From IMG/VR virus record IMGVR_UViG_3300027896_000016: a stretch of 64,000 nt of DNA, one strand, 5' to 3'. Made by a program: the position numbers and the translations under genes. Within the stretch, counting starts at the first letter, position 1. Each line of letters begins with the position of its first letter. This DNA is from an uncultured virus (IMG/VR IMGVR_UViG_3300027896_000016) (Duplodnaviria > Heunggongvirae > Uroviricota > Caudoviricetes). Positions 3,522-58,060 of the stretch are shown piece by piece. The notes under the pieces were generated by a model that saw only the letters and a program-made list of their open reading frames with translations, was not told the origin of the DNA and made no database searches.

Positions 3522-4700
3522 TTAGTCTCCTTCGGGATTTAGAATAACCTTAATATGCCAGTGTTTTAAGAAATTGTCCAATATATCTCGAATTAAATCT
3601 GTACTAAATGAAGAACCAGCATTTGATCTACTAAGTATTTCGGTATATTGCCTTACTGTTATTGTATTATAATTAATATTATATTCTTTAAAGAAATCAA
3701 ATAAAGTTTGTCCGTGTATTTCAAGAGGTCTAGGTCTAATATAAGAACCAGAATTTTCAAATTTTTTGTTATCTATTTTGTCTACTATTTGGTCTATAAA
3801 TACTTTTTTGCCAAAATCAATTGATTGCATCCATTGACCGATGCGCTTTTTATATTCAGGTTTAGGGTTACTATTAGAATGACCTTCTATGTCTACAAGT
3901 TCCCAAAATTTGTCAGTATAATCAGTAGCATTATGGTATCTCGGTACAAATGCCGCTGTTACATGCGGTTTATTTTCCTGGTCGCGCAACGAAATAACGT
4001 TCATGTTATATTCTAAAACTTGGTCCCAATAAGAGGCAATACAATGATTCATTCGATTGCCTTCAACCGTGATATCATTCTCAGTCGTTATTTCTTGTAT
4101 TGTCCAATTGTCGGGCCAAGTATAAAGTATATTTGGCGTGTAAATCGGCTCATAGACTAAATTTTTGCCTTTTTCGGCTTGGGCTTTGTGCCAGCGAATA
4201 CTGGCAAGTTGGGCTTGTATAAAGTCATAGCTGGCAAGTCTAGGATGTTCGGCGTTGTACCAGTCTATTAGTGTCCAAATTGTGCCTCTTAAATCTGATC
4301 GATCAACATAATCAATTGTTTCTTCGTCATGATAATTTAAAATTGGAAATTCTTGATCATATACAATTTCACCCTTAATCATATATTTTTTAGTTCTATG
4401 TTTAATTATTTGTATTGCTACCCAATCTATCATTTCTTTAGCTATATTAACATCATTTAGCTTTAATACTCTTAAAAATGCTTCTTCATAATAATCTAAT
4501 TTTATTTCTTTTGGTTCAAAACTGGCCGCTAAATCTTGTATTTGGCCCAAATTTAGCCCGCGATTTTTGCGCAGTTCGTTAACTATCTTGCCCTGTATCT
4601 TAGAATCTGACAGAAATTTGACAAAATCTACAATTTCTTGCGAGATGCCCAATCTTGCAAGATAATCTTCGACGGGATTTTGGCGATATCTATAGCGCAT
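3522..4700 (-). CDS. PcfJ-like domain protein (paralog 1)
   Basis: EGNRMNHCIASY ... ISLRD..NKPHVT motif; N-terminal MRYRYRQNP. Confidence 0.75.
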   Translation of the reverse strand: MRYRYRQNPVEDYLARLGISQEIVDFVKFLSDSKIQGKIVNELRKNRGLNLGQIQDLAASFEPKEIKLDYYEEAFLRVLKLNDVNIAKEMIDWVAIQIIKHRTKKYMIKGEIVYDQEFPILNYHDEETIDYVDRSDLRGTIWTLIDWYNAEHPRLASYDFIQAQLASIRWHKAQAEKGKNLVYEPIYTPNILYTWPDNWTIQEITTENDITVEGNRMNHCIASYWDQVLEYNMNVISLRDQENKPHVTAAFVPRYHNATDYTDKFWELVDIEGHSNSNPKPEYKKRIGQWMQSIDFGKKVFIDQIVDKIDNKKFENSGSYIRPRPLEIHGQTLFDFFKEYNINYNTITVRQYTEILSRSNAGSSFSTDLIRDILDNFLKHWHIKVILNPEGD

Positions 4701-10145: not shown

Positions 10146-11384
10146 TTAGTCACTAACACCTATGCCTAGTTCTTTAAGTTTTTTATTGACTTTTTTGATA
10201 CACTTTAATCTTATTTCGTTTTTAATTCTTTCATAATTATGATTATCTTTTACAATTTCATAACTTAGATCTATATTTATTAAATCACTTAATTCTAACG
10301 TATCAGAACAAAGATATTGAAGATTTTTACAACGATCTAAAATTTCATAATAATATTCTTCTAATTCTACAATTAAATCGCCATATTGCTTAGAATCTAT
10401 ATTTTTGCCTTTAAATAAATCATAGTCTTTTAGAAATCTATTATCTATCTGATTAAGTTCTAATCGAATAAAATTTATTATACGCCGATTTTCTTTTAGC
10501 CAATCCAAAGTTTTGAGCCATTGGCCAATGCGTTTTTTATAAGTCAATTTCGGATCACTATTGCCATAGCCGCGAATTTCTCTCGCAAAATATTGACCTT
10601 CCGTATCTCTACTTAAATTTATTGTAACATGTGGCATATTTTCATCATCACGCAAACTAAATATTCGTCTTTCTTTTGTTTTGACAAATTGATAGTAAGC
10701 TCCTACACAGTTATGCATTAAATTACCTTCTACTTCTAAGTCATGAGCACTTGTAATTTTTATAATGAACCAATTGTCAGGATAAACAAATTGTATAAGA
10801 TCTTTGTCTATTGGATCATACTTATTATGCTTAGTTAAAATATCTTTATGCCATTGTAATGTTTCTTTTTGGGCTTGCACAAAATCATAACTGGCGATTT
10901 TTGGTTTCTTATCCTCATACCAATCGTAAATTTCGTTAATTAAATTATCAAAATGTAATCCTCGAAAATTTGCGCAATTTTCAAAATCAAGATATTTAAT
11001 TTCATTAGTTTCTGGAATAACAATTGGAAATTTATGTATAAGATAAGTTTCATCTACAAATTCTACTATTTTACCAGTTCTATATTTAAGCAATTGCGTT
11101 TTTAGCCAATGATAAAAATCCGAGTCTACGTTATTATACCTATAAATATTAAGTATGTTCTCTTCATCATAATCCCAAGTTATTTCTTTTGGGCCGAAAC
11201 TTTCGGCTAAGTCTTTAATTTCGGCCAATGCCAAATTTTTATTCTTACGCAGTTCATTTACTATCTTGCCTTGTATCTTGCTATCGGCCAAATTTTTGAC
11301 AAACGTTATGATCTCTTGCGATATGCCTAATTTCGCAAGGTAATCGTCAACCGGGTTACGCCTATATCTACAAGCTCGCAACAT
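10146..11384 (-). CDS. PcfJ-like domain protein (paralog 2)
   Basis: EGNLMHNCVGAY...FSLRD..NMPHVT; N-terminal RYRRNP. Confidence 0.75.
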   Translation of the reverse strand: MLRACRYRRNPVDDYLAKLGISQEIITFVKNLADSKIQGKIVNELRKNKNLALAEIKDLAESFGPKEITWDYDEENILNIYRYNNVDSDFYHWLKTQLLKYRTGKIVEFVDETYLIHKFPIVIPETNEIKYLDFENCANFRGLHFDNLINEIYDWYEDKKPKIASYDFVQAQKETLQWHKDILTKHNKYDPIDKDLIQFVYPDNWFIIKITSAHDLEVEGNLMHNCVGAYYQFVKTKERRIFSLRDDENMPHVTINLSRDTEGQYFAREIRGYGNSDPKLTYKKRIGQWLKTLDWLKENRRIINFIRLELNQIDNRFLKDYDLFKGKNIDSKQYGDLIVELEEYYYEILDRCKNLQYLCSDTLELSDLINIDLSYEIVKDNHNYERIKNEIRLKCIKKVNKKLKELGIGVSD

Positions 11385-22579: not shown

Positions 22580-23604
22580 TCAGGCAACAGAATTTTCTTT
22601 TTTGTAAAATCTAAAACTACTATAACATTTAAATTTAATATCTTCCAATTTAGCGCTTTGACAAATTCTTTCGCCATTTATAAGTGAATGTAAACTTAAT
22701 TTATTTTTAAAAGGTGTACCGCCAATATAACAAAGTCCATATTTAGGATGAATTACTAAACTTCCTCGTTTCAATCCAAGACTTCTTGTACCTCCATATT
22801 TTAATCGTTTTCCACCTTTAGAAAACTGAAGATGATGTAATTGTCTCCTATGAAATCTCAATGGAACCACAATTAATAAAGATTTATTATCTGGATTTTT
22901 CTTTCCGCCAACTTCACTATAAGCTAAAATCCAACTATCAACATTATGTGCAGAAAATTCTTCCTTTAATTTTGAACAATTTTTTCTAATCCAAGTCGAT
23001 TCCTTAAATCGGATGTTTCCCGTCCTTGCATAATTTTAACAGAAGCAATCTTTTTAAGTTCTTCATAAAACCACTTTTTACCAACTTCCAACAAACTAAA
23101 ACTAGAATCCCACCTTCTTTGACCAGTTTTCTTAGCCTTAACATCCTCAACTATAAATTGAGAAATTGGGAATATTTTAATAAATTTATTGACAATTCTA
23201 AGTTTTAACTGCCATCTAGCCTTAGTAGAAAACGGTAATTTTCTTCCTCTTCTATTTTGTCTCGGTTTTCTATATGGCGTTTTTCTAAATCTGCGAGCTT
23301 TACGCATATTCCTGCGTACCTCAACTGCGTCTTTTACCCAAGTAACCGCATACGATAAAACATTTAAATAAGTTTTCCTTTTTGATTTAACTGTAAATGC
23401 TTCTCTTTTACTCCCTGGATCAATACCTACTACTATAGGCTGCATATTTCTGGCAGAAGGTTCTACGTTTAACCTAACACAAAATACGCCTAGCTTATAA
23501 AAATAGGTAGCCTTTCTACTTCTAATCCACTTAGAGGCCCTTCTACGAGTAGTTGGCATAAGTGGTTTATTATTTTTATCTACAACTGGAACCATGTTTT
23601 TCAA
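22580..23604 (-). pseudogene. isrB: isrB, frameshifted by a 1-nt deletion near 22980
   Basis: KPLMPT, GIDPGSK, IVEDVK, then SAHNVDS in a shifted frame; GAAAAAATT versus GAAAAAACTT in the intact paralog; no HNH. Confidence 0.85.
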
Positions 23605-24614: not shown

Positions 24615-25649
24615 TTAAGCAACAAATGGATTAGCGATATCCTCCTTTCTGTAAAATCTAAAACTATTAAATGCCCTAAATTTAACATCTTCTAATTTCG
24701 CGTTTTGACAAATTCTTTTACCGTCTACAAGTGAATGTAAACTTAATCTTCCTTTTAATGTTCCACCAATATAACAAAGACCATATTCGGAATGATCCAC
24801 TAAACTTCCCCGTTTCAAACCAAGACTTCTTGTTCCTCCGAATAAACGTCGTTTTCCTCCATGAATAAATTTAAAATAATGTAATTGTCTTCGATGAAAC
24901 CCCAAAGAAACCAAAATTAACAAAGATTCATCTTCTGGTTTTTGTTTACCACCAACTTCGCTCCAAGCTAGTAACCAACTATCGACATTATGTGCAGAAA
25001 ATTCTTCTTCTAATTTTGAATAAGTTTTTTCTAATCCAAGTTGATTTCTTAAATTATATGTATCCCAACCTTGCATAATTTTAATAGGAGCAATTTTACC
25101 GAGTTCTTCATAAAACCATTTCTTTCCAACTTCTAAAGGACTAAAACTAGAATCCCATCTTTCTTGTCCAATCGTTTTAGCTTTAATATTTTCAATTATA
25201 AGTTTGGAAATTGGAAATATTTTAACAAGTTTATTAATAATTCTGAGCTTCAACTGCCATCTAGCTTTAGTAGAAGGAGGTAATCCACCCATTTTTCTAT
25301 TTTTTCTTTGCTTTCTACATGGAGTCTTTCTAAAACGACGATTTTTACGAGCACTTTTTCTATTTTCTACTCTATCTTTAACCCAAGTAACTGCATATGT
25401 TAAAATATTCAAATGTGTTTTCTTTTCTGATTTAACAGTAAATGCTTCTCTTTTACTACCTGGATCAATACCTACTACTATAGGTTGCATATTTCTTGCA
25501 GAAGGTTCTACATTCAATCGAACACAAAATATACCATGTTTCCAAAATGGAGTAGCTTTTCTACTCTTAATCCATCTAGCCGCTCGCCAAGATGTTGTTG
25601 GCATAAGCGGCTTTCCATCTTTGTCTACTACTGGTACTGATTTTGTCAA
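24615..25649 (-). CDS. isrB: IsrB RNA-guided nickase (PLMP domain, split RuvC, bridge helix, no HNH)
   Basis: 344 aa; KPLMPT, VGIDPGSK, Arg-rich RKSARKNRRFRK, IIENIK, HNVDS. Confidence 0.9.
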   Translation of the reverse strand: MTKSVPVVDKDGKPLMPTTSWRAARWIKSRKATPFWKHGIFCVRLNVEPSARNMQPIVVGIDPGSKREAFTVKSEKKTHLNILTYAVTWVKDRVENRKSARKNRRFRKTPCRKQRKNRKMGGLPPSTKARWQLKLRIINKLVKIFPISKLIIENIKAKTIGQERWDSSFSPLEVGKKWFYEELGKIAPIKIMQGWDTYNLRNQLGLEKTYSKLEEEFSAHNVDSWLLAWSEVGGKQKPEDESLLILVSLGFHRRQLHYFKFIHGGKRRLFGGTRSLGLKRGSLVDHSEYGLCYIGGTLKGRLSLHSLVDGKRICQNAKLEDVKFRAFNSFRFYRKEDIANPFVA

Positions 25650-28481: not shown

Positions 28482-29255
28482 TTAGGCTTTATAATCAATG
28501 CGTAAATTCGCAAAAGTAATAGACAATGCTGTTGCCGCACCATCTCTTTGTGCAGCCATAAATACATCCCATGTCGAAGGCGCATAATTTGTTTTAGCGG
28601 TTGCCATAAATACTAAACCATTATTACCGTATACATTAAACGAAAATAAAGGTTGTAAAGTGCTTAACGCTGGCCATCCAGCAGACCAAGTGCCAGAATA
28701 AGCCGTTCCAAATCCAGCCATTACACCACAAGGTAAATCTATAACCATTACATCTTGAGCAAAATATGCGGCAATTTGTGACTCAGTAGGATAATTATTC
28801 TGAGAAATATTAATTCTTACTTTATGTCCAGTAGTTGTGCTATATCCTCTCCAAAGAGAATAAAAGAAACTATTTCTAACTGATGCATTATATGTATCTA
28901 ATGCGAGAATTGCGGCGTCATAATTAGCAGCGGAATTATTTGCTGAATTATATGCCCATATTCTAATCGGCGTATCAAAAGAAAAACTAGATATCACTTG
29001 CTGGATATTAAGAGCCAACATTGGTAATTTACGAAAATCGCCCCGCCATTCAGCTAAACAAGATGAATTATCTCCACCCTGAGTAGGTTGGATAATAACT
29101 CCAGAACCGTTTGTAAGTGTCATTGCAGAAGATTCTTCGGTTGACCATAATTTTCGAAACGTAAGTCCCGCAATGGTATAATTACCATCCGGGGCTAAAG
29201 TTTGAGTACCTTGAGCCGCAAAATCAAGATCTAATATTGTTGTCCACCCTGCCAT
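28482..29255 (-). CDS. beta-sandwich structural protein, triplet A member
   Basis: WTTILDLDF..QG.QTL.PDG.YTI; GTWSAGWP. Confidence 0.75.
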   Translation of the reverse strand: MAGWTTILDLDFAAQGTQTLAPDGNYTIAGLTFRKLWSTEESSAMTLTNGSGVIIQPTQGGDNSSCLAEWRGDFRKLPMLALNIQQVISSFSFDTPIRIWAYNSANNSAANYDAAILALDTYNASVRNSFFYSLWRGYSTTTGHKVRINISQNNYPTESQIAAYFAQDVMVIDLPCGVMAGFGTAYSGTWSAGWPALSTLQPLFSFNVYGNNGLVFMATAKTNYAPSTWDVFMAAQRDGAATALSITFANLRIDYKA

Positions 29256-29264
29256 GTTTAATCC

Positions 29265-29999
29265 CTAAATTTTGTATTCTACTTTCATATTCTTAAAAGT
29301 AACGTTCAAAGCAGTCGCACTTCCAGCACGAAAAGCACCAATAACAACTTGCCAATTTGTTGCAAGACCACCAAATGAAAAAATATTAATAGATGTTCTA
29401 TAAAGCATTGTATAACCTGTTACTGGCAACATATTACCTACTGCGGGCCATCCTGCCGCCCATGTTCCCGCAAGACTAATCGCTTTTCCCGATTCAACAC
29501 CAAATGGACATTCTAAGGTAAGAACGTTAGTTGTTCCATAACCGGTAACTGAAATATCTCCTTGAGATACGTTATTTAAAAAACCCTGATCGTAATGTGA
29601 TATTCCACCAGCAGCGGCATAATATAATAATCTATGCTCATAACATAAATTAAATGCTCCATTATTAATAGTAAGCATAGCGCCGTCATAATCTGCACTT
29701 AAATTACTAGTAAAATAAACCCAAACCCGCAACGGAGTATCCATAGCAAAACTAGGATATGCTGTTAATAAATTTAAATTAAGTCCAGGTAATGTTGCAG
29801 ATCCGGGTAGATAATCTGTAGCCGCAACAGGAATTATCACAATACCGGAACCACTTGTAAGAGCCATCGCAGTAGCATCATTAGCTGAATTAAATTTTGT
29901 AAAAACATAGCCACCAATAGTATAATTACCATCAGGAGATAATGCTTGATCTCCTAATGCAGTAAAATCAAGATCAAATAATGTTTTCCATTCTGCCAT
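29265..29999 (-). CDS. beta-sandwich structural protein, triplet A member
   Basis: WKTLFDLDF; GTWAAGWP. Confidence 0.75.
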   Translation of the reverse strand: MAEWKTLFDLDFTALGDQALSPDGNYTIGGYVFTKFNSANDATAMALTSGSGIVIIPVAATDYLPGSATLPGLNLNLLTAYPSFAMDTPLRVWVYFTSNLSADYDGAMLTINNGAFNLCYEHRLLYYAAAGGISHYDQGFLNNVSQGDISVTGYGTTNVLTLECPFGVESGKAISLAGTWAAGWPAVGNMLPVTGYTMLYRTSINIFSFGGLATNWQVVIGAFRAGSATALNVTFKNMKVEYKI

Positions 30000-30008
30000 T
30001 TTTAAATC

Positions 30009-30797
30009 CTAAATTCTGTAATCAATACGCATATTCACAAAAGTACAAGAAAATCCTACTCCACCACATGCTCCAATAAGAATATTCCATCCAGACGCAA
30101 GACCAATATTAGAAGAATCACCAATTGAACCATCAAACATTTGGTGTGTCCCTATAGGTTGAAGTGTGTTTAACGCTGGCCATCCGGCAGACCAAGTACC
30201 TATGAATGAACATGCCCAACCTTGTGCAACACCCAATGAACATTCAATCATTAAAACATTATTCGCGCCATATCCAGAAGCAGGACCAGAATCATAACTT
30301 AGTGTGGTAAAATTATAAAGGCTTCTGAAATAATAATTAATATCACCAGGAGGAACTAAATAAAAACGTCTATTGTTAATAAACGCATCGCCAACAGTCC
30401 AATTTTCTATTGCAGCATATGCATAACTATAACCAATAGAAGTAAATGTTGAATTATAAAGCCATATTCTGATTGGTGTGTCTAATCCATAACCAGTAAT
30501 AATTTGCGCAAAATCAAGTGTCAACGCCGGAAGTGTTCTCGTTGCACCAACAAAATCACCGGCATTCGGTTGAATAACTAGACCGGAACCATTGACTATA
30601 GCGGCGGGAACTTGATCGTTAGCAGAATTTATTTTGTTAAACGTTAAACCGCCAATTGTATAAGCAATATCTGATCCTAATGTTTGATTTGACTGTGTGG
30701 ATAAATTAAAATCTAATATTGTTACCCATCCCTCAGATGGTGGTGGTGCAGAAGGATTCACAAACAACATCGATTTTGCTGCCGCATGGAAAAACAT
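30009..30797 (-). CDS. beta-sandwich structural protein, triplet A member
   Basis: WVTILDFNL; GTWSAGWP. Confidence 0.75.
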   Translation of the reverse strand: MFFHAAAKSMLFVNPSAPPPSEGWVTILDFNLSTQSNQTLGSDIAYTIGGLTFNKINSANDQVPAAIVNGSGLVIQPNAGDFVGATRTLPALTLDFAQIITGYGLDTPIRIWLYNSTFTSIGYSYAYAAIENWTVGDAFINNRRFYLVPPGDINYYFRSLYNFTTLSYDSGPASGYGANNVLMIECSLGVAQGWACSFIGTWSAGWPALNTLQPIGTHQMFDGSIGDSSNIGLASGWNILIGACGGVGFSCTFVNMRIDYRI

Positions 30798-31147
30798 TAT
30801 TTGCTATCCGCACTGGATCTAACAGCATGCCAAGTTGTTCCACCATCAACTGTCATCATCGTCAAAATATCTACACCAGTAACGGTCATTGTCGGGGCCG
30901 AACCACCCGGCCATTTTGGTACAGGACTCCAAGTAATATTCGTACTTGGATTGGTCAGAATAAAAACAGCAGTTGCGACAGTTCCAGAAGGCGGAACATT
31001 TATAAAACTCCAAGTACCGGCACCAGTCAAGGTGGCTGTAATAACATTTCCCAACGACAAATCTATAACTGTATTTGTATTTCTATTACCAAGCACTTGA
31101 ACTGTTTGTTGAAGTGCAGATGCAATACCGTATACAATGGCTACCAT
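30797..31147 (-). CDS. small fibre-associated beta domain protein
   Basis: IDLSLGN..TLTG...KWPGGSAPT..DIL..DGGTTW pattern typical of fibre adaptor domains. Confidence 0.7.
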   Translation of the reverse strand: MVAIVYGIASALQQTVQVLGNRNTNTVIDLSLGNVITATLTGAGTWSFINVPPSGTVATAVFILTNPSTNITWSPVPKWPGGSAPTMTVTGVDILTMMTVDGGTTWHAVRSSADSK

Positions 31148-35546: not shown

Positions 35547-36284
35547 CTATTTTAATTTTTCAATTTCTATAAAATCTACACTTGCAAAATGAGTAACATT
35601 TTCCCGTGTAACTATATAAAATACAAAATAATAATTATCTGCCGTTAATTTTTTAGTTATACCTGCATTAGAAATTTCAGTTATAATTGAAGTTGCTGAT
35701 TGTCCCCAATGAATAGTACCATCTGAATCAAGCCAAAGTTCAAGATAATCATCAACACCAGCACCGACAACACCGCCTACTGTTGATCCATATTCTGCAC
35801 CCGTAGAATCATCCATAGTCAATCGCCAATGGGAGTCTAAACTAGGATTAAATTCTATCCATGCATATTTATTCGCCGCATTATAAAACCCCATTCTAAA
35901 TTCAGTATTAATATTATCAGTAAGTACCTTAATACAAAATCGTGGAATTTTAACACGATTAACGCAAGCCAATACACTTCGAGTACCTTCTTTATTTGTA
36001 TTTAACGCACCAGTCGTTAAATTTGCTCTTGAAACATATGAAGGAAATGGCGGAACAATAGTATTCGTACCAAGACCTGATTTAAATTCAGCAGCAGCCA
36101 AATTATAAGTACTGGCATAAATCGATCGCGAATAAACATCAAAACAATCTTGAAATAGGATAGTTTTCATCCGAGTATAATTAGACAATTCATTACCAAG
36201 ACTAGCATAAACCTTTTGGCCAGTAGTCGGATCAATGACCAAAGATTTGCTATTAGCAGAATATATTGTTGGAATTTGGGCCAT
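35547..36284 (-). CDS. lectin/ConA-like beta-sandwich protein, triplet B member
   Basis: QIPTIYS..KSLVIDPT; FRMGFYNAA.KYAWIEF. Confidence 0.75.
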   Translation of the reverse strand: MAQIPTIYSANSKSLVIDPTTGQKVYASLGNELSNYTRMKTILFQDCFDVYSRSIYASTYNLAAAEFKSGLGTNTIVPPFPSYVSRANLTTGALNTNKEGTRSVLACVNRVKIPRFCIKVLTDNINTEFRMGFYNAANKYAWIEFNPSLDSHWRLTMDDSTGAEYGSTVGGVVGAGVDDYLELWLDSDGTIHWGQSATSIITEISNAGITKKLTADNYYFVFYIVTRENVTHFASVDFIEIEKLK

Positions 36285-36290
36285 TTTATT

Positions 36291-37028
36291 TTACCCCAAT
36301 TTGAGTTTTTCTGTTTCAAACATATCAACTTTCGCAATTCTAGCAGCAGCACCAGCTAAAGCTTCGACTCTAAACAGCGTATAATAATTATCAGCAGTTA
36401 CTTTTTTAGATATGCCAGTAGTAGCTAGTTCTGTTATAACCGAAGTAGCCGACTCCCCCCAATGAACAGTTCCATCTGACGCGAGCCAAAGTTCAAGATA
36501 ATAATCAGTTCCAAGAACAACAACATCACCTGTTACGGCACTATATTCAGCACCAGTACTATCATTCAAGGTCACACGCCAATGTGCGTCTAAACTACTA
36601 TCAAATTCTATCCATGCATATTTTGCCGCTGCATTATAAAACCCTAATCTAAAGTTTATTGTAGTTACATCGGGAAGATTAACCTTACACATAACTCTCG
36701 GAAGTTTAGATCTTAAAATAAATGCCTGATTACTTCTTGTTCCTTCTGCATTATTTATAAGTGCGCCAGTGGTCAAGGTCGCCATAGAAATATTGTCAGT
36801 AACATTATTAGTTCCACCACCAACATGAAATGCCGCTAAATTATAAGTACTAGCGTAAATAGATTGCGAAAAAGTATCAAAATCGTCCTGAAATAAATTA
36901 CTGATACGCCGATTGTAATTAGAAGTTAGATCCCCCAATCCAGAAAAAGTCTCTTGACCTACAGTCGGGTCAATAACAAGAGATTTTCCGGCACCAGAAT
37001 AGATAGTCGGAATTTGTGGCGCTACCAT
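36291..37028 (-). CDS. lectin/ConA-like beta-sandwich protein, triplet B member
   Basis: same motifs. Confidence 0.75.
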   Translation of the reverse strand: MVAPQIPTIYSGAGKSLVIDPTVGQETFSGLGDLTSNYNRRISNLFQDDFDTFSQSIYASTYNLAAFHVGGGTNNVTDNISMATLTTGALINNAEGTRSNQAFILRSKLPRVMCKVNLPDVTTINFRLGFYNAAAKYAWIEFDSSLDAHWRVTLNDSTGAEYSAVTGDVVVLGTDYYLELWLASDGTVHWGESATSVITELATTGISKKVTADNYYTLFRVEALAGAAARIAKVDMFETEKLKLG

Positions 37029-37042
37029 TTAATCACTCCAAA

Positions 37043-37783
37043 TTAAGATGTTTTGAGTTTTTCGTATTCGATCATGTCTACTTTTGCTACTTTTGCCGCA
37101 ACGGCCAAACTACTTTCCAAAAATTGAAAATAATAACTATCCCCCGTTAATTTTTTAGTTATTCCGGCAGTCACAATTTCAGGAATAATCGGATTAGAGG
37201 CTATTTCGCCCCAATGCATTGTTCCATCAGAAGCAGACCAAAGTTCAAGATAATAATCAGTGCCCGCACCAACAATATCACCAACTGTAGTACTATATTC
37301 GGCACCAGTATTATCATTAAGAGTAAAACGCCAATGCGTGTCTAAACTACTATCAAATTCAATCCACGCATATTTAGCAGCAGCATTATAAAAACCCAAT
37401 CTAAAAATTACATCAGCATTACTTACAAGATTAACCTTACACATAAGTCTAGGCAATTTTGATCTAATAAGAAATGCCTGAACACTTCTTGTTCCTTCAG
37501 TATCATTAACATGTGCATCGGTAGTTAATGTTACCATAGAAATATTGCCAGAAATATTGTTAGTGCCAGCAACACCAACATGAAGTGTTGCTATATCATA
37601 AGCACTTGCATAAATTGACTGCGAATAAGTATCAAAATCGTCATTAAAGAGAATAGTTTGAGAACGATTATAATTTGCCAATAGTTGACCTAATTGGGTA
37701 TAAGTTTGCTGACCCAAAGTAGGATCAATGACAAGACTCTTACCGGCAGCAGAATACAAAGTTGGTATTTGCGGTGCTACCAT
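37043..37783 (-). CDS. lectin/ConA-like beta-sandwich protein, triplet B member
   Basis: same motifs. Confidence 0.75.
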   Translation of the reverse strand: MVAPQIPTLYSAAGKSLVIDPTLGQQTYTQLGQLLANYNRSQTILFNDDFDTYSQSIYASAYDIATLHVGVAGTNNISGNISMVTLTTDAHVNDTEGTRSVQAFLIRSKLPRLMCKVNLVSNADVIFRLGFYNAAAKYAWIEFDSSLDTHWRFTLNDNTGAEYSTTVGDIVGAGTDYYLELWSASDGTMHWGEIASNPIIPEIVTAGITKKLTGDSYYFQFLESSLAVAAKVAKVDMIEYEKLKTS

Positions 37784-40844: not shown

Positions 40845-41621
40845 TCATGCCACGCGCATAATCAGGTGTAATTCGACGTAAGCCGGTATATTGTTAGCCG
40901 GATCAATCGCACCTACCAACGGGTGATTATGATCTAATTCAAGAGTAACACTATTTGCATGAGAGCCGTCAGCAATTATACTGTGAGTATGATTCGCCAC
41001 AACACTAACAGAATGATTATGTACCGGACTCGCAGTAGTTATTGTATTGACATGCACTATTTCATTATCTGTATATAAACTTCCACCCCAAGTATGAGAA
41101 TGCGTCCCAGCATTTGCAGTATCGGGCATACTATGTCCGTGTGGTTCGCCAGGAATTGCATTTGCGCCCGGTGTACTTCCTAAAGTAGTGGGAATCGAAC
41201 CGGAAAATATACCACCAACACCATGAAAATGATCTGGTACTGTATTAGAAGAAGCCGATCCTACAAGAGTATGATTATGCGTAGTAGCATTTGTTACGTG
41301 GGTATGTCCAGCAACGTTTCCTGTTGCTGCTCCATGACTATGAGTACCGGCAGCACCAGAAACCGCACCATGATCGTGATTAGCAATTGTGCTAAAAGTA
41401 TGAGTATGATTTCCAGCTAAATCAACTATAACAGTTCCTAACGCATGATTATGAGTGTTCAAACCGCCAGCAGCACCGCCCGGACCAATACCTATTGGCG
41501 CTCTTACCATTAAATTGCGCATATCAATAGTTCCGGCAGTACCATCGCATAATTGCCAATCTGCCGGAATAGAAGCTACACTTCCAGGCCAATAAGCTAT
41601 AGAATTTATGGGCAGCTTCAT
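40845..41621 (-). CDS. tail-collar-domain fibre with HxH repeats, triplet C member
   Basis: WPG..IP..WQLCDG..DMR; many HxH; NIPAY.ELH. Confidence 0.8.
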   Translation of the reverse strand: MKLPINSIAYWPGSVASIPADWQLCDGTAGTIDMRNLMVRAPIGIGPGGAAGGLNTHNHALGTVIVDLAGNHTHTFSTIANHDHGAVSGAAGTHSHGAATGNVAGHTHVTNATTHNHTLVGSASSNTVPDHFHGVGGIFSGSIPTTLGSTPGANAIPGEPHGHSMPDTANAGTHSHTWGGSLYTDNEIVHVNTITTASPVHNHSVSVVANHTHSIIADGSHANSVTLELDHNHPLVGAIDPANNIPAYVELHLIMRVA

Positions 41622-41631
41622 CGTTCAAACC

Positions 41632-42516
41632 CTATACTTTTATAATAAAATGCAATTCCCTGTACACCGGAATATTGTTTGCACTAGCAAAAGCACCGCC
41701 CATTGTGTGTGTGTGATCTGGATCTACAGAAATCGTATGACTATGATCCGCTTGCAATGCAACAGTATGTGCATGATCTGCCTGAGTACTTATAGTGTGC
41801 ATATGGTCCGAATCCATAGAAACCGGATGCGTATGAGAAATTTTATTTCCAGTTACTTGTCCACCAAGAAAACTATGAGAATGTCCACCACCTACTTGAG
41901 TATTTATTCCCCCTAATCCATGAAAGTGAGCTGCTGGGACACCTGTTCCGCCAGCAGCAGTATTTGTAACCGTTCCGGCAACGCCAGTAAAACCAGCACT
42001 AAAACCATGTAAATGTGAATTACCATAAGCCGCTAAAAGACTTGAAAGACCATGAACATGCATATCCTCCGCGTCTGTATTTCCACCATGATCGTGAGCA
42101 CCGTTTAATCCAGTATTTCCAGTATGATTATGAGAACCGGAATCCCCTGTAACACCAGTATGACTATGAGAACCGGCAAAACCTGATAATCCACCATGAC
42201 TATGAGCACCAGCACCTAAAGTCGCTAAAGTACCATTTGTATGAGTATGGGTATTAGAACCTCCAGAAGTACCACCCGGACCAATGCCTAAAGGAGTTTT
42301 TGCAAAAATCCCTCGCATATCTGGATTGATTAAACCCAAAGCAGTCAAACTTGCATATATCGCCCCATTACAATAACCCCAACCCGAAGGAATTGAAGCC
42401 ACATTTCCGGGCCAATGGACAATAACACCTATTGGAACCTCTGACGGTGGCAATATGCTACCAGTTCCAGATTCGACTTGAGCAAATGTACCAACACCTA
42501 AGCCACGAGAAATCAC
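41632..42516 (-). CDS. tail-collar-domain fibre with HxH repeats, triplet C member
   Basis: IPSGWGYCNG..PDMRG; NIPVYRELHFIIKV. Confidence 0.8.
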   Translation of the reverse strand: MISRGLGVGTFAQVESGTGSILPPSEVPIGVIVHWPGNVASIPSGWGYCNGAIYASLTALGLINPDMRGIFAKTPLGIGPGGTSGGSNTHTHTNGTLATLGAGAHSHGGLSGFAGSHSHTGVTGDSGSHNHTGNTGLNGAHDHGGNTDAEDMHVHGLSSLLAAYGNSHLHGFSAGFTGVAGTVTNTAAGGTGVPAAHFHGLGGINTQVGGGHSHSFLGGQVTGNKISHTHPVSMDSDHMHTISTQADHAHTVALQADHSHTISVDPDHTHTMGGAFASANNIPVYRELHFIIKV

Positions 42517-42518
42517 AT

Positions 42519-43397
42519 TTAAACCTTAATCATAAAGTGTAATTCTTTGTAAGCCGGAACATTGCTCACAATCGTTAAAGAACCACTTATTGAATGGGTA
42601 TGAGCCGCTTGTACACTTATATTATGACTATGATTATCTTGATTATTTATAACGTGCAAATGATCCGCTTGTAATGCAATAGTATGTTTAACATTCAAAA
42701 CAGAAACTATCGGATGCATATGGGCACTTTCGTTTTGTACAGCTTGACCAATAGTATATGAATGCGTATGATCTCCAACAGGAAAAGTATTACCGGATAA
42801 GGAATGCACATGATCTGCCGATATATTTCCTGCAACAGAAGCAGTATTAGTACCTACACCAGAAGATCCGGTACTTCCAGCGAGTAAATGTTGATGTCCA
42901 CCACCTAAACCTGTATTTACAGTATTTAAAAGATGCCAATGTGCAGTTCCGGCACCGGTTAATCCACCATGAGTACTATAATCATCATCTGCCGTATTTC
43001 CAGTATGATCGTGAGAACCGGCATTTCCGGTATTTCCACCATGACTGTGAGTACCGGCTAATCCCGAAACACCACCATGAGAATGAGAATCGGCCAAATC
43101 TGCCAATAAAGTACCATTTGCATGTGTGTGTGTATCAGAACCGCCAATTGTGCCACCCGGACCAGTTCCAGACGGCGCTTTTGCAAATAAACCTCGCATG
43201 TCGGGATTAACCAAACCAACAACAGTCAAACTTGCATAAACTGTTCCATCACATAAAGCCCAACCTGCCGGAATCAACGCAACTGCCAAAGGCCAATGAA
43301 TAATAGTTCCCACCGATATACTAGGCGACGGTAATATTACACCGCTACCGGAAGAAATTTGAGCAAAAGATCTTATACCCAAACCCTGAGAAATCAA
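42519..43397 (-). CDS. tail-collar-domain fibre with HxH repeats, triplet C member
   Basis: IPAGWALCDG..PDMRG; NVPAYKELHFMIKV. Confidence 0.8.
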   Translation of the reverse strand: MISQGLGIRSFAQISSGSGVILPSPSISVGTIIHWPLAVALIPAGWALCDGTVYASLTVVGLVNPDMRGLFAKAPSGTGPGGTIGGSDTHTHANGTLLADLADSHSHGGVSGLAGTHSHGGNTGNAGSHDHTGNTADDDYSTHGGLTGAGTAHWHLLNTVNTGLGGGHQHLLAGSTGSSGVGTNTASVAGNISADHVHSLSGNTFPVGDHTHSYTIGQAVQNESAHMHPIVSVLNVKHTIALQADHLHVINNQDNHSHNISVQAAHTHSISGSLTIVSNVPAYKELHFMIKV

Positions 43398-43399
43398 GA

Positions 43400-43735
43400 T
43401 TATTCCCCAATTTGAGTTACGGCAATTAGGCCAACACCTGTTTTAATATATACTTGAACGGTTTCATCTATGGAATATTCAACATAACCACCGTTACCAT
43501 CACCAGGATTAATTTCTGCCTTTAATCTATTAGATCCACCAGTTGGAGTAAAAGAAACTTCAATAACATTGACCGACTTATTTTGTATTCCGACAGCCTT
43601 ACGTTTTAATAATGGCACTATAGTACCAGTTCCAGCACCAATATTAAATAAAGCGATAGGCGGTGCGACGGAAGTAAAATCGGTTATAACTGCCTGTTGC
43701 GGAGTTCTTAGATTAACGCCTTCTGGAGTAGCCAC
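43400..43735 (-). CDS. small beta-rich structural protein
   Basis: RKAVGIQNKS...IEVSF pattern; adjacent to the capsid cluster. Confidence 0.65.
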   Translation of the reverse strand: MATPEGVNLRTPQQAVITDFTSVAPPIALFNIGAGTGTIVPLLKRKAVGIQNKSVNVIEVSFTPTGGSNRLKAEINPGDGNGGYVEYSIDETVQVYIKTGVGLIAVTQIGE

Positions 43736-43765
43736 TTTTAGTCTCCAAAACTTAGTTTATTTTAT

Positions 43766-44455
43766 TTAGTCGATTTTGCGCGGATCAAAATTGTCGTTAT
43801 CAAGCCACATCCACCCAAAGATCCTTGCCGAAGCAACAGTTGCGCCACCAGTATTGTTAACTATAATAGAAAGTGTCTCTTGCTCACGTAAAATAAAATG
43901 CGAATTTGCCAAATCTGGCATTGTGATAGAGTTATTACTATAATCAGTAGTAAGCAAAGTGCTCACAGGATAATTTATGTATTGATTCGCGCCATGATTA
44001 ATTCTAAATGTAAGATTTGCCCAATTTGCCACGGGAGCAGAATAGCCAAATCGTGTTATAATACCCTTGAATCCTGTTGGTATCGCAAAAGATAGAACAG
44101 TTATATTATTAGTCAATGCCGCTATCGCAGTACTTTTAGCTTGCATATCGATAATAATACTACCCCAAAACGGAGCATAGTCCTTTGGCAACACTATATA
44201 ATATGGGTTCTTATGAACACCCCGAATAGAATCTATCAATTGCTTCCAAAGTGAAATAACCCATGTAAGAGCACCTGGGAATATTTCATCATAAGCAGGT
44301 TCCGCTGGAATTATATTTTCATTTGATTTCTTTAGGTCATCTGCACCAGCTTCTTCTTTTAAGGCATCAGCCCAAAAAGGATTTTGAAATTCGCCAAGAC
44401 CTTTATTATCATCTGACGGTTTGGGCCGATTATCTGGTCTTCGTCCAAGAGCCAT
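43766..44455 (-). CDS. putative jelly-roll minor capsid/penton protein
   Basis: FAIPTGFKGIITRF...LREQETLSIIVNN...ARIFGWMW strand pattern. Confidence 0.5.
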   Translation of the reverse strand: MALGRRPDNRPKPSDDNKGLGEFQNPFWADALKEEAGADDLKKSNENIIPAEPAYDEIFPGALTWVISLWKQLIDSIRGVHKNPYYIVLPKDYAPFWGSIIIDMQAKSTAIAALTNNITVLSFAIPTGFKGIITRFGYSAPVANWANLTFRINHGANQYINYPVSTLLTTDYSNNSITMPDLANSHFILREQETLSIIVNNTGGATVASARIFGWMWLDNDNFDPRKID

Positions 44456-44470
44456 GAAAATGCCCCTTAT

Positions 44471-45349
44471 TTACCGAACGTAAATCCGCGTTGCACCGAA
44501 TGTAAAGTAGATCGTATTACTAAAAACAGCAGAATCATTCGTAAAGACCACTTCCATAACCGTATCGCGTTCAGCTAAATAGCTTGTCGGTAGAATATGT
44601 GGATATTCAGCAGTACCAGCACCACCAACATTACTAATTGTACCAGACATCAAACTTGCTCTTGATCTAGAATCCTTGATTTCATAATGAAACGGTTGAT
44701 CGGAAACCGACATTATTTTCTTTATTTCCAAATGACCTTCAGCATTGATTGAAAAATTGACGCTTCGAATTTCGCTAGGATTCAAAACTATCGGCACGTC
44801 GCTTGTTAACCAATATGGCGTCATAACAAGATTTTCAGATATCTTTGCTGCCTTGATTTCATCGAAAATACCACGCGGCGCGGATTGCTCGTAATATCGA
44901 ATACCGGAGAGATAAAATTCCAACTGATTAGCAAGACCAGAAAGGTCCGTCGCTGAAATCGTCAAAGATCTTCGTTGTTCAAGGAATACCCAATGAGGCA
45001 GAATATATGGTCGCTGACCAGAACCCATAACCGTATTTATATGACATGGCCTATTCATCCAACGTCTTCGTGCGGCAGTATCTTCGATTTCAATCGTACA
45101 TGGTGCTGTGCGTCTTCCTTGAACAAAAACACATTCCATCGGACCTTCTTGCGAAACTGTCATAGGTGTAGGTGCAGAAGGACCGCCAGCAGGAATAGTA
45201 ATTGTACGATTGGGATTATTCGTAGTTAGCCAGAAAGGACGAATCAAAAATTTATAGGAGTTTACGTTTGGAATCGGGCGCTCACCGGGTCGTTTTGTCC
45301 AAAATACTGATTTAGTAAGATCTGGATTTATCTTCTTGTTTTCTGCCAT
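44471..45349 (-). CDS. putative capsid protein made of two tandem homologous beta domains
   Basis: PFWLT/PYWLT, IEIED/YEIKD, G...PYILP/G...PHILP, GIRYY/ATRIY. Confidence 0.55.
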   Translation of the reverse strand: MAENKKINPDLTKSVFWTKRPGERPIPNVNSYKFLIRPFWLTTNNPNRTITIPAGGPSAPTPMTVSQEGPMECVFVQGRRTAPCTIEIEDTAARRRWMNRPCHINTVMGSGQRPYILPHWVFLEQRRSLTISATDLSGLANQLEFYLSGIRYYEQSAPRGIFDEIKAAKISENLVMTPYWLTSDVPIVLNPSEIRSVNFSINAEGHLEIKKIMSVSDQPFHYEIKDSRSRASLMSGTISNVGGAGTAEYPHILPTSYLAERDTVMEVVFTNDSAVFSNTIYFTFGATRIYVR

Positions 45350-54933: not shown

Positions 54934-55128
54934 GGCAAATCCTCCCTTTTCTAATTGGGCTTCCAAGCCCTATTTTCTGAAACTATAGGAATTGACACCT
55001 ATTACGAAATTACAGTTTAACAATTATGAAATAGTTAATTAATTTGATAATTCGGCAATTCGATTATTTCTGTGTTCTGCATTTTTATGTTGGGCCAAAG
55101 CCTTAATCGAAAAACAATTCTTGTCACC

Positions 55129-55157
55129 ATTAGACCCTATAAAACTTTAAAAGTCAA
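55129..55157 (-). promoter_or_regulatory. leftward promoter
   Basis: TTGACT-17-TCTAAT within GGTCTAATGG. Confidence 0.65.
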
Positions 55158-55225
55158 GCCCTTTTTTAAGATATTTCGTGCATAAGCGCAAAAATGACCT
55201 ACATAGTGCAATCCAAACGTTAAAC

Positions 55226-55453
55226 TACCATTAGTGGTATTACCAAATGGTAACACCACTACCAGTAGTGGTTTCATATACTAACCTTGTTAAGATTAGC
55301 ATGACATAACCCTGCAAGGTGCAGACAAAATCAAGCAATCACCTATCAGAAATTGCCTAGATTTACTCTTTTTTCTGCAAATTGGGCCAAGGCTACCCGT
55401 CGGTAGGATCATACCTAGCGGTAGCCCTAAACCAAAAAGCTACCATTTGGTAG
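55226..55453. promoter_or_regulatory. cluster of TACC-Nx-GGTA palindromes (operator or origin candidates)
   Basis: TACC-N4-GGTA at 55241, 55394, 55412, 55441, plus variants. Confidence 0.55.
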
Positions 55454-55581
55454 GATTCTCCCGGTAGAGCATAATATTCGTCGGTAGATTTGCGGACAAC
55501 GCATATTATGCACCCGTGGGGCAAGGCATAACTCACAGTAAAACAAGGGGTTATGACGGCAAAAATAATCGAAAATTCGAC

Positions 55582-55609
55582 TTGACAACGGGGTACCTCA
55601 TGGTCTAAT
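55582..55609 (+). promoter_or_regulatory. rightward promoter
   Basis: TTGACA-16-TCTAAT within GGTCTAATGG. Confidence 0.65.
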
Positions 55610-55614
55610 GGGTG

Positions 55615-56040
55615 TAGCTTCCATCGGTAGGGGTAGACACAAGCCCGCTACCCGGTAGCGTGTTACACGATCCTTGACAATCGCGGCGGTTCTGAGGCAC
55701 GTAGCGGGAGATTACTTTCCCGCCGAACGGAAAACCGGCGATTTGCTGATTATTTGTAAAATCCGTAAATCTCAACCGGGAAAACGAAACGCCTTAAACG
55801 CTCAATCGGCTTGCAATCGCAAATTTGCGGTTTTAACCGTAAATTTACCGATTGTGACGGCTCTACAGATTATCACGCGGTAGGGGTGTTTATTTCCCCC
55901 TGCCGCTTTTCAGCGATTTGCGGTTTTTCTCGCAAATTTGCGAATCCCTGAAAAGCGGCAGTAGTGCCGTTTAGAAAATCGTGCCGATTTTGCGGTAATC
56001 GCACGATTTTAACAAAATACCGCAAATGAGGGATTAGTAA
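55615..56040 (+). ncRNA. long structured 5' leader of the early arm
   Basis: successive stems including TGCCGCTTTTCAG/CTGAAAAGCGGCA (55901-55960); no credible ORF. Confidence 0.55.
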
Positions 56041-56041
56041 A

Positions 56042-56488
56042 ATGGCTAAGAAGACTGAAGTTAGTGCGGTCCCGGTTGTCCCGGTAGCGGCTGCACCCGT
56101 CGCGCCCATGGCCCTTCCCGTCGCGCCCGTGGCCCCTGCCGCGAGCGTTCCGGCTCCCGAGGGTAAGGGGAAGCGGGGACGGCCAAAGGGATCGAAGGTT
56201 GAAGCGGTTCGGAATAACTACGCTTCCCTTATTTCGGCTGTAAGAGTTGATAAGGCCGAAAAGGTTACTCCCGATATGATCGAAAAGTATCGGGCCGAAA
56301 TGGTAGCTTTCTACAGCGAAAAGGGTAATTTCGCTACGGATAAGCTTCCGGTCAAGATCTTGGAGCGTATGGGGATTGCGGCTCCGAAGTCCAGTAAGAA
56401 GGATTTGATTACGGAAGTCGCAAGCCTTAAGGCCGAACTGGAAATGTTGCGCGCAATGAAGGCGCAAATGGAAGGGGGAAAGAAGTAA
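56042..56488 (+). CDS. first early protein; AT-hook-like motif and C-terminal coiled coil
   Basis: RBS GAGGG; KRGRPKGS; KKDLITEVASLKAE. Confidence 0.85.
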   Translation: MAKKTEVSAVPVVPVAAAPVAPMALPVAPVAPAASVPAPEGKGKRGRPKGSKVEAVRNNYASLISAVRVDKAEKVTPDMIEKYRAEMVAFYSEKGNFATDKLPVKILERMGIAAPKSSKKDLITEVASLKAELEMLRAMKAQMEGGKK

Positions 56489-56510
56489 CAAACTGCAAGT
56501 AAGGCAATTA

Positions 56511-56545
56511 AGCCCGAATGGGAAAATTCCCGTTCGGGCTTTTTT
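56511..56545 (+). terminator. intrinsic terminator
   Basis: AGCCCGAATGGGA/TCCCGTTCGGGCT followed by a T-run. Confidence 0.8.
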
Positions 56546-56552
56546 GTTATAT

Positions 56553-56672
56553 TGGGAATGGCCGAAGAATAAAGGGCCGATAAAACCGCGTTTTTTACAG
56601 AAAACGCGCAATAATCGACCGCCCGCTGTAACGGGAAAGAAGCCAAATAAGGCTTCCGGCCAAATTTTCCCA
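56553..56672 (+). ncRNA. unrecognised kissing-loop RNA, copy 1
   Basis: loops TTACAG (56595-56600) and CTGTAA (56626-56631) are complementary; closing stem present. Confidence 0.75.
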
Positions 56673-56772
56673 TATTTGTAGTACTCCCCGATAGGTCTTT
56701 CCGGCCTATCGGGGATTTTTTGTTATATTGCCGGTACTTAGCTGCGCAGCAAGCGGCAGCACTTACCGACTT

Positions 56773-56884
56773 GGGCATAGCCGAAATTAAAGGGTTGAAT
56801 AAAATCTTGCTTTTTTGCAGAAAACAAGATTGAAACAACCGCCCCTGCAAGGGAAATTGGCGCATAAGCCAACGACTATTGCCC
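56773..56884 (+). ncRNA. unrecognised kissing-loop RNA, copy 2
   Basis: loops TTGCAG (56815-56820) and CTGCAA (56845-56850); same linker motifs as copy 1. Confidence 0.75.
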
Positions 56885-57006
56885 TTCCCCGATTGTCCTT
56901 ACCGGGCAATCGGGGATTTTTTATTATAGGCTATTATTAGCCGACAATATTCGCTAGAGCGTTCTAGCGAAAATCGAATAAACCCGAGGGATCGAAAGGG
57001 GATCGT

Positions 57007-57525
57007 ATGGCGAATCGAAAGGATAGGTCAATTGCTAGCACGTCTTTTGTGTCGTTTGTTGAGAAGCACAAAGGCAAGACAAAAAAGATTTCAGTCGAAA
57101 AGTTAGACGAATTGCGCGAAGAGTATATAGACGCAATTGGGGAAAACGATAATTTTGAATATGAAGCCGTTCCGATTTCACTGCGAAATATGGTCGAATG
57201 GGAAGATGAAGACGATAATTCGGACAACGATTCGGACGATAATGAAGATATTGACGATGAAGACGATGAAGACGATGAAGACGAAAGGCCGCGCCGAAAA
57301 TTGCGAAATTCGCGCAAATCGCGCAAAGTCGGCAACGCCGATATTTTGGCTGCAATTGTCGGCCTAACGAATGCAATTGCAGGAAAGACAACGCCAAAGC
57401 CGGAACAACCGGAAAAGCCGGAACCTAAACCGGAAACAAAAAAGGATTTGCGGGATCAAGTCGCGGCGCTTAAAGCCGAAATTGCGGCACAAACGGCGCA
57501 AACGGCAACGCCACAAAAGCCGTAA
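57007..57525 (+). CDS. early protein with long acidic tract
   Basis: D/E run; KKDLRDQVAALKAE. Confidence 0.8.
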   Translation: MANRKDRSIASTSFVSFVEKHKGKTKKISVEKLDELREEYIDAIGENDNFEYEAVPISLRNMVEWEDEDDNSDNDSDDNEDIDDEDDEDDEDERPRRKLRNSRKSRKVGNADILAAIVGLTNAIAGKTTPKPEQPEKPEPKPETKKDLRDQVAALKAEIAAQTAQTATPQKP

Positions 57526-57966: not shown

Positions 57967-58060
57967 ATTAATCCCCAGTAGGCCGAAAGGCTTATCGGGG
58001 ATTTCTTATTTATAGAGAGTTTGTACAAAGGAGAAAGGAATTAGCATAAAGGAGAAAGAA

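Follow-up and report, generated by a model that had tools for sequence, protein, structure and literature searches.

The window analysed here, a stretch of 64,000 nucleotides from an uncultured virus of the Caudoviricetes (IMG/VR record IMGVR_UViG_3300027896_000016), carries two short units which, as their sequences read, represent a real structured RNA with good support; the RNA is of a new sequence family, and the orphan phage has it as two paralogues in tandem. Copy 1 (120 nt, 56553..56672, + strand) is delimited by minimum free energy (MFE) folds, a covariance model and a structural alignment, and copy 2 (114 nt, 56772..56885, + strand) forms the same four-way junction; both are located in the early, switch-region-proximal part of this novel freshwater phage. 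The reading which we favour, with slightly better than even confidence, is that the two diverged tandem paralogues represent a new orphan family of small structured non-coding RNAs, encoded as free-standing cassettes on the + strand, which would act through their architecture rather than by antisense pairing or ligand sensing; the strand and the free-standing status are what we infer from the sequence. A first-pass annotation, made from the letters alone, had described two units of this layout between terminator-like hairpins, and our reading of the sequence agrees with it in coordinates and layout, the bracketing hairpins (56510-56546, 56685-56721 and 56886-56922) being real.

MFE prediction folds both copies into one four-way junction composed of P1, a P2-P2a arm, P3 and P4, with z-scores of the core fold of -5.1 (copy 1) and -4.1 (copy 2). 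P1 joins the 5' and 3' ends and is divided by a bulge into P1a (56553-58/56667-72 in copy 1, + strand as for all elements of the fold) and P1b (56559-64/56657-62), amounting to 12 bp in copy 1, from which the 10-nt A-rich strand J1/2 (56565-74) leads to P2 (56575-79/56616-20). P2 is followed by an internal loop and then by the hairpin P2a (56587-94/56601-08), the apex of which displays UUUU/AAAA around a 6-nt loop. P3 (56622-25/56632-35), a short hairpin CCC(G)/(C)GGG, equally with a 6-nt loop, begins 1 nt past P2, and AAA links it to P4 (56639-44/56651-56), whose loop ends in AUAA and whose 3' strand continues without a linker into the 3' strand of P1. In copy 2, P2a (AAUCUUG-c-UUUU/AAAA-CAAGAUU) is longer than in copy 1 (11 vs 8 pairs), P3 has 3 bp and the internal loop of P2 is shorter (5 and 4 nt). 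Between the copies, the A-rich sequence of the junction strands and of the P4 loop is conserved; in copy 1, A accounts for 26 of the 38 unpaired, non-kissing nucleotides (68%).

The fold is carried by the way in which the two copies differ. Since MAFFT alignments of both copies misplace P2 and P4 and were not used, a covariance model was built from copy 1 alone (given twice) and its structure, and this model then aligned copy 2, resulting in the alignment A5. The copy 1-only model detects copy 2 at 54.6 bits (E 1.7e-10, 64 kb searched) and no third copy, its other matches there being the mirror image of one hairpin and a 13-bit chance match. Alignment A5 comprises 41 pairs, 35 of them nested and 6 loop-loop, with standard pairs in 96.3% of 80 cells; the three mismatched cells are two C.A, situated on the + strand in P2 of copy 1 and P1b of copy 2, and one U.U. 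Nine pairs are altered on both sides (one each in P1a, P1b, P2 and the loop-loop helix, two in P2a and three in P4), and none on a single side. Shifting the partners by 1-3 columns lowers pairing to 33-48%, and 0 of 500 shuffles match the observed values. The stems P2a and P4 are wholly replaced in sequence between the copies with pairing preserved, so that the claim of the first-pass annotation that stems diverge and stay paired is borne out.

The same holds for its claim of covarying loops. In copy 1 the P2a loop UUACAG (56595..56600) is the exact complement of the P3 loop CUGUAA (56626..56631), and in copy 2 UUGCAG (56815..56820) is the exact complement of CUGCAA (56845..56850), six of six positions in each copy; the two helices are distinguished by a single compensatory exchange (A-U in copy 1, G-C in copy 2). 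In a scan of the whole 64 kb for hairpins with a Watson-Crick stem of at least 3 bp and a 6-nt loop, located at most 60 nt apart, these two are the only hairpin pairs with perfectly complementary loops; in 50 block shuffles, the number of such pairs averaged 0.28 and never exceeded 1. The pattern of exchange indicates that selection has kept a six-pair loop-loop helix through the A-U to G-C swap. Of the selected tertiary fold proposed previously, the structured RNA and the covarying loops therefore stand, whereas the 'direct evidence' claimed for it amounts to one compensatory change between two paralogues. With one loop-loop change between paralogues, pairing in cis is not distinguishable from pairing in trans.

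The description of the units as ORF-free needs qualification, as mechanical open reading frames overlap them, of 45 and 37 aa (TTG starts, + strand) and of 184 and 200 aa antisense; however, of the eight gap runs in the alignment of the copies, seven measure 1 nt, and together with the compensatory stem changes these disfavour a coding reading. That the units are duplicated intergenic DNA devoid of RNA function, their structure arising as a by-product of the hairpin-rich sequence of a terminator region, would be compatible with a singleton, found in one genome, that lacks homologues and has no RNA run listed, but we consider it very improbable: nine double compensatory changes stand against zero single-sided ones, sliding the partners collapses the pairing, P2a and P4 have been fully rewritten and still pair, and the loop complementarity, unique in 64 kb, survives a two-sided change.

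Each copy is followed by an intrinsic terminator, T2 (56685..56721, + strand) and T3 (56886..56922, + strand), respectively, while T1 (56510..56546, + strand), with a stem of 12-14 bp and then a T6 run, lies 3' of the upstream gene. T2 and T3 belong to a family of near-identical hairpins of the form UCCCC(G/A)(A/G)U.G...AUCGGGGAUUU, found on the + strand at 56685, 56886, 57972, 63496 and 63811 with compensatory changes in the stems; T3 is 84% identical to T2 and displays such changes as well. The hairpins at 57972, 63496 and 63811 are each positioned 3' of a protein-coding ORF, one of the short genes of the + strand block. By this family membership T2 and T3 are the ordinary terminators of the phage and not a dedicated expression platform. 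The duplicated unit (repeat family D1) takes in the terminator, which fits a gene cassette of RNA plus terminator, and each unit would then be an independent cassette which ends at an ordinary intrinsic terminator, not a ligand-controlled leader. In the minus-strand block, one hairpin (61543-61517) passes the terminator filter.

Nevertheless, the arrangement recalls tandem cis-regulatory leaders, riboswitches or protein-controlled attenuators, that gate transcription into the downstream 172-aa gene and beyond, which we regard as unlikely. Each unit immediately precedes an intrinsic terminator, the pair sits in the 518-nt gap that precedes the gene at 57007-57525, the conserved purine-rich junction strands resemble aptamer cores, the P1 3' strand AUUGCCC of copy 2 could pair with the terminator 3' arm GGGCAAU, and tandem complete riboswitches exist. 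In purine and lysine riboswitch aptamers, a junction closed by P1 is locked by hairpin loops paired in cis and followed by an intrinsic terminator on the 3' side, and the units share with them the P1-closed junction, the two complementary loops and the 3' terminator. They differ in their very unequal arms (~13-16 bp plus internal loop vs 3-4 bp), in fully Watson-Crick loops, in the absence of an antiterminator, in their generic terminators and in having no Rfam match. When the 5' strand of P1 is barred from pairing, the terminator hairpin remains in the MFE structure of both units, and thus there is no competing antiterminator; copy 1 shows nothing comparable to the pairing available to copy 2. 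A riboswitch is unlikely because the terminators are generic, serving ordinary genes too, an antiterminator is absent and P1, with 12 pairs in copy 1, is a long, stable stem. In addition, T1 already halts transcription ahead of copy 1, and the pattern scans of IMG/VR, JGI and GTDB described below retrieved no homologue upstream of any gene class and hence no aptamer conserved upstream of a coherent one.

The + strand block is rich in strong terminators (56510, 56685, 56886, 57628, 57972, 63496 and 63811), and since it is so dense in them, its distal genes need either read-through or many promoters. This, together with the position of the RNAs near the start of the block, brings to mind cis-acting processive antitermination RNAs such as put of phage HK022, where the nascent RNA binds the polymerase and provides read-through of the terminators of the block. 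HK022 likewise has two related put RNAs, structured with the support of covariation between paralogues, in the early region and upstream of terminators. The put RNAs are, however, two-hairpin molecules of ~70 nt, one per operon, unlike the ~115-nt tandem four-way junctions with kissing loops found here; tandem copies in one operon do not follow the putL/putR arrangement and T1 lies upstream of copy 1, so that we assign antitermination a low probability, lower still than that of leaders.

Rfam 15, a library of 4227 models that includes pRNA, manA, ROOL, GOLLD, riboswitches and self-cleaving ribozymes, gives 0 matches at gathering thresholds in the 64-kb window, in line with the failure of the first-pass annotation to recognise a family. 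At E<=10, the segment 56450-57010 gives 12 weak matches (at most 17.6 bits), mostly small RNA families over the terminator hairpin; none is to a riboswitch, ribozyme or phage RNA family (pRNA, manA, ROOL, GOLLD), and the hammerhead, twister, twister-sister, pistol, hatchet and HDV-like models do not match there, which leaves the earlier idea of a ribozyme unsupported. Candidates dropped for want of an adjoining partner gene were a retron msr-msd (no reverse transcriptase gene adjoins the units), an omega or bridge RNA (no TnpB, IscB or IS110 recombinase gene), a type III antitoxin repeat (no toxin gene) and a CRISPR-repeat mimic (no cas gene).

Homologues were found neither by pattern scans of IMG/VR, JGI metagenomes and GTDB species genomes nor by blastn against GenBank phages, where nothing exceeded short chance matches. 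The scans demand exact blocks conserved between the two copies, so that diverged members may escape them, and the window itself is in none of the scanned collections. Among at least 314 loci retrieved by these scans, of which 96 from IMG/VR were judged by eye, at least 120 by a regular-expression filter and 98 with the covariance model R2, the unit layout is present in none, and the RNA family is thus known from one genome. By eye, the downstream layout is in none of the 63 IMG/VR loci matching GCCGAA..AAAGGG..ACCGCCC or of the 33 matching AAAGGG..ACCGCCC..GGGAAA. The pattern TAAAGGGNNGA.TAAAA..CCGCCC returned nine IMG/VR loci without a homologue (also run with R2), a loop-based pattern 0 loci, and a pattern for the 3' half 13 loci with a top model score of 14.7 bits, which are not homologous; a two-block 5' pattern gave at least 120 loci, with correctly placed downstream blocks in none among the matches listed that were put through the filter. 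Fifteen JGI loci contained no homologue according to R2, and of 61 GTDB loci, with a top score of 15.9 bits, the two best were inspected and rejected. Model R2 also found nothing in 14 loci surrounding ATPases distantly related to that of the window or in five whole large-phage records, a weak negative in both cases, as R2 is known to match the window only. The covariance-model search envisaged by the first-pass annotation thus recovers copy 2, but no homologue in the viral or metagenome loci tested.

The geometry of the junction bears on how the loops would meet. With J4/1 of 0 nt and J2/3 of 1 nt, P1 is expected to stack coaxially on P4 and P2 on P3, giving a rod of ~20 bp that would carry the P2a loop at one end and the P3 loop at the other. 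With the loops so placed, head-to-tail pairing in trans looks at least as natural as a fold-back in cis, and such intermolecular pairing would lead to a dimer, a ring or a filament. Pairing in cis would need the long arm to fold back by ~180 degrees at the internal loop; the P2 internal loop has no kink-turn signature and in copy 2 is the shorter one in spite of the longer P2a helix there, and all six nucleotides of each loop go into pairing with none left to span the grooves. The predicted energies of the loop duplexes are -4.1 (copy 1) and -6.1 kcal/mol (copy 2) for self pairs and -1.2 and -4.1 kcal/mol for cross pairs, and as the cross pairs are weaker, the loop swap partly insulates the paralogues from each other.

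Among the functions that the first-pass annotation had listed, the decoy is pure conjecture, and the ring or oligomer is the most defensible by analogy, on the basis of the junction geometry and published precedents. We put forward, as a tentative model well short of even probability, a self-assembling block that forms protein-free head-to-tail rings, filaments or a cage, in which the re-coded loops would partly insulate the assemblies of the two paralogues; for the phage, an RNA of this kind could serve as scaffold, container, protein sponge or read-through aid. Should self-assembly prove true, few natural quaternary assemblies made of RNA only would be as small, and none before would have had an interface coded specifically for each paralogue.

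Several points weigh against the favoured reading of free-standing, architecture-acting + strand RNAs. It is built on n=2 sequences of a single genome, in which the kissing-loop swap is one event, and the covariation statistics are thin because alignment and structure both derive from these same two sequences. The collections searched yielded no homologue that would show conservation across lineages. Among sequencing runs, one freshwater metagenome DNA run, probably the source, is available and no RNA run is listed; the contigs of that DNA run contain no variants of the RNA region. The argument on cis versus trans pairing is one of geometry. Furthermore, the distance between the T-run of T1 and P1 of copy 1 is just 6 nt, which leaves no room for a promoter. 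The motif TGTTATATT (56545..56553, + strand), which resembles an extended -10 element (TGnTATAAT) and is the only promoter-like one at this place, directly abuts copy 1; by the sigma-70 rule, as we presume it to apply, transcription from it would start near 56560, inside P1, and its role as promoter is doubtful for this reason. Matches to the extended -10-like motif number 18 in the window vs 10 expected. It must be assumed that a copy 1 5' end with intact P1 arises by read-through plus processing, or from an unrecognised promoter. Copy 2 is separated from T2 by a spacer of 50 nt, in which a second TGTTATATT (56721..56729, + strand, extended -10-like) lies 43 nt upstream of the RNA and a weak hairpin (56732..56768, + strand, z -1.44) has no counterpart before copy 1. 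T1 (56518-28) and the P1 3' strand of copy 1 (56663-73) are perfectly complementary over 11 nt, a match set aside as being at chance level, with ~0.6 expected in a 2.2-kb region by our own estimate.

The reverse complement also folds better than the + strand, by 5-6 kcal/mol (-54.2 vs -48.5 kcal/mol for copy 1 and -41.1 vs -36.2 kcal/mol for copy 2) and with z-scores of -6.16 vs -5.09 and -4.75 vs -4.08, because the two + strand C.A mismatches become G.U, and on this strand P2a and the GUUUUAU after it resemble a terminator. The first-pass annotation had taken into account neither this better fold of the opposite strand nor the generic nature of the flanking terminators. The functional RNA might accordingly be the minus-strand transcript, to which the + strand terminators would be mere neighbours, an explanation to which we give about as little credit as to antitermination. 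Structured RNAs are usually A-rich in their unpaired strands; those of the minus-strand RNA would be ~68% U, which is unusual, vs 68% A on the + strand. Neither a promoter nor a strong terminator was found for the units on the minus strand, each duplicated cassette carries a + strand terminator, the adjoining genes and the GC skew are +, and a minus-strand transcript would continue into the 148-aa gene in antisense orientation. The plus strand is therefore very probably the functional strand.

The window appears to belong to a large and very novel phage. Minus-strand genes occupy a block of 55 kb, after which a plus-strand block follows, and the GC skew changes sign near 55-56 kb; the switch region between the blocks (54967-56041) spans ~1 kb and contains short mechanical ORFs only, none of them reaching 100 aa. 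It is dense in repeats, namely GGTAG/CGGTAG words, TACCAAATGGTA/TACCATTTGGTA palindromes and GCAAATTTGCG repeats, with a 22-nt inverted repeat at 55900-55961, and might serve as an origin or in regulation. The first + strand gene past this non-coding region (56042..56488) encodes the 148-aa protein upstream of the RNAs, for which library scans found no Pfam or PHROG family and in which the stretch GRGRPKGS is what we take to be AT-hook-like. The downstream gene (57007..57525, + strand) encodes the 172-aa protein, with a very acidic centre formed by a long acidic run and no convincing family in the same scans. Both flanking proteins have a C-terminal KKDL..V..LKAE motif in common when compared by eye, and a possible reading is that the two are related early proteins which bind or mimic DNA.

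Among the 69 proteins of the window scanned against Pfam and PHROG, few have any family. Those that have one include an AAA ATPase, RuvC, two RRXRR proteins, two PcfJ-like proteins, a tail-collar match and a transglutaminase-like domain; the best identity to the AAA ATPase among 5.8 billion clustered proteins is 40%, the protein of the window itself being absent from that collection. RRXRR domains occur in HNH and IscB-like nucleases; each of the two paralogues here (22966-23604 and 24615-25649, minus strand; 212 and 344 aa; Pfam E 4e-33 and 5e-32) has a gap of 260-460 nt in front of it, and the Rfam search of the window gave no HEARO match. On the minus strand, runs of ORFs of ~245-295 aa around two large ORFs (994 and 1193 aa) at 28482-31147, 35547-37783 and 40845-45349 are without family save for a weak tail-collar match at 42519-43397, and these runs are probably a tail-fibre module with paralogues. 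The PcfJ-like proteins (3522-4700 and 10146-11384, minus strand) have Pfam E-values of ~1e-8 each, and a GHKL-type ATPase domain is found in a 688-aa protein (1288-3354, minus strand).

If real and expressed, the RNA described here adds a compact new fold, a four-way junction combined with a six-bp, fully Watson-Crick loop-loop contact, to the few phage RNAs with programmed loop-loop pairing, and indicates that orphan phages in freshwater metagenomes contain RNA families that present libraries miss. As it is small, comes with a naturally re-coded paralogue and has two clearly separable interaction sites, it would be unusually tractable for the question of cis versus trans pairing and of what benefit a phage draws from such assemblies. 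The classical case of intermolecular loop pairing is the ring of phi29 pRNA (Phage_pRNA in Rfam), whose loops pair between molecules and thereby close the ring. Similar to pRNA, the units are small phage RNAs (~120-170 nt) with a multi-helix junction and two mutually complementary, covarying loops on one RNA, 6/6 pairs in both copies. They differ in the loop pairing (6 nt vs 4 nt in pRNA), in having a four-way instead of a three-way junction, in occurring as two tandem paralogues and in giving no match to the pRNA covariance model at E<=10 in 56450-57010. A phi29-like portal, packaging ATPase, terminal protein or protein-primed polymerase was not recognised among the 69 proteins, most of which are family-less and which represent part of a genome.

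Closer in size is the manA motif, an RNA of <200 nt for which a recent report describes intermolecular kissing loops, L5-L7' and L8-L9', that hold pentamers together, and cryo-EM structures of pentamers, decamers and a 60-mer cage built through kissing loops (bioRxiv 10.64898/2026.07.01.735769). Both are phage-associated RNAs (manA is also cyanobacterial) of <200 nt with kissing-loop hairpins, predicted from loop complementarity in the present case; manA has other helices and another conserved core, and is widespread, whereas the present RNA is known from one genome and has no Rfam match. The larger ROOL and GOLLD RNAs are instructive in another respect, in that covarying loop pairs, bridge B4 of ROOL and bridge B7 of GOLLD, proved to be intermolecular (PMC12286853). 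Similar to the present units, they are phage or prophage RNAs of unassigned function with covarying loop pairs, for which a tertiary reading became a quaternary one (PMC12286853); unlike them, they measure 500-800 nt and occur near tRNA islands, compared with ~115 nt, no tRNA or tmRNA gene in the window and no Rfam match. In recent cryo-EM work, covarying loop pairs of phage-linked RNAs are often quaternary contacts which build rings and cages.

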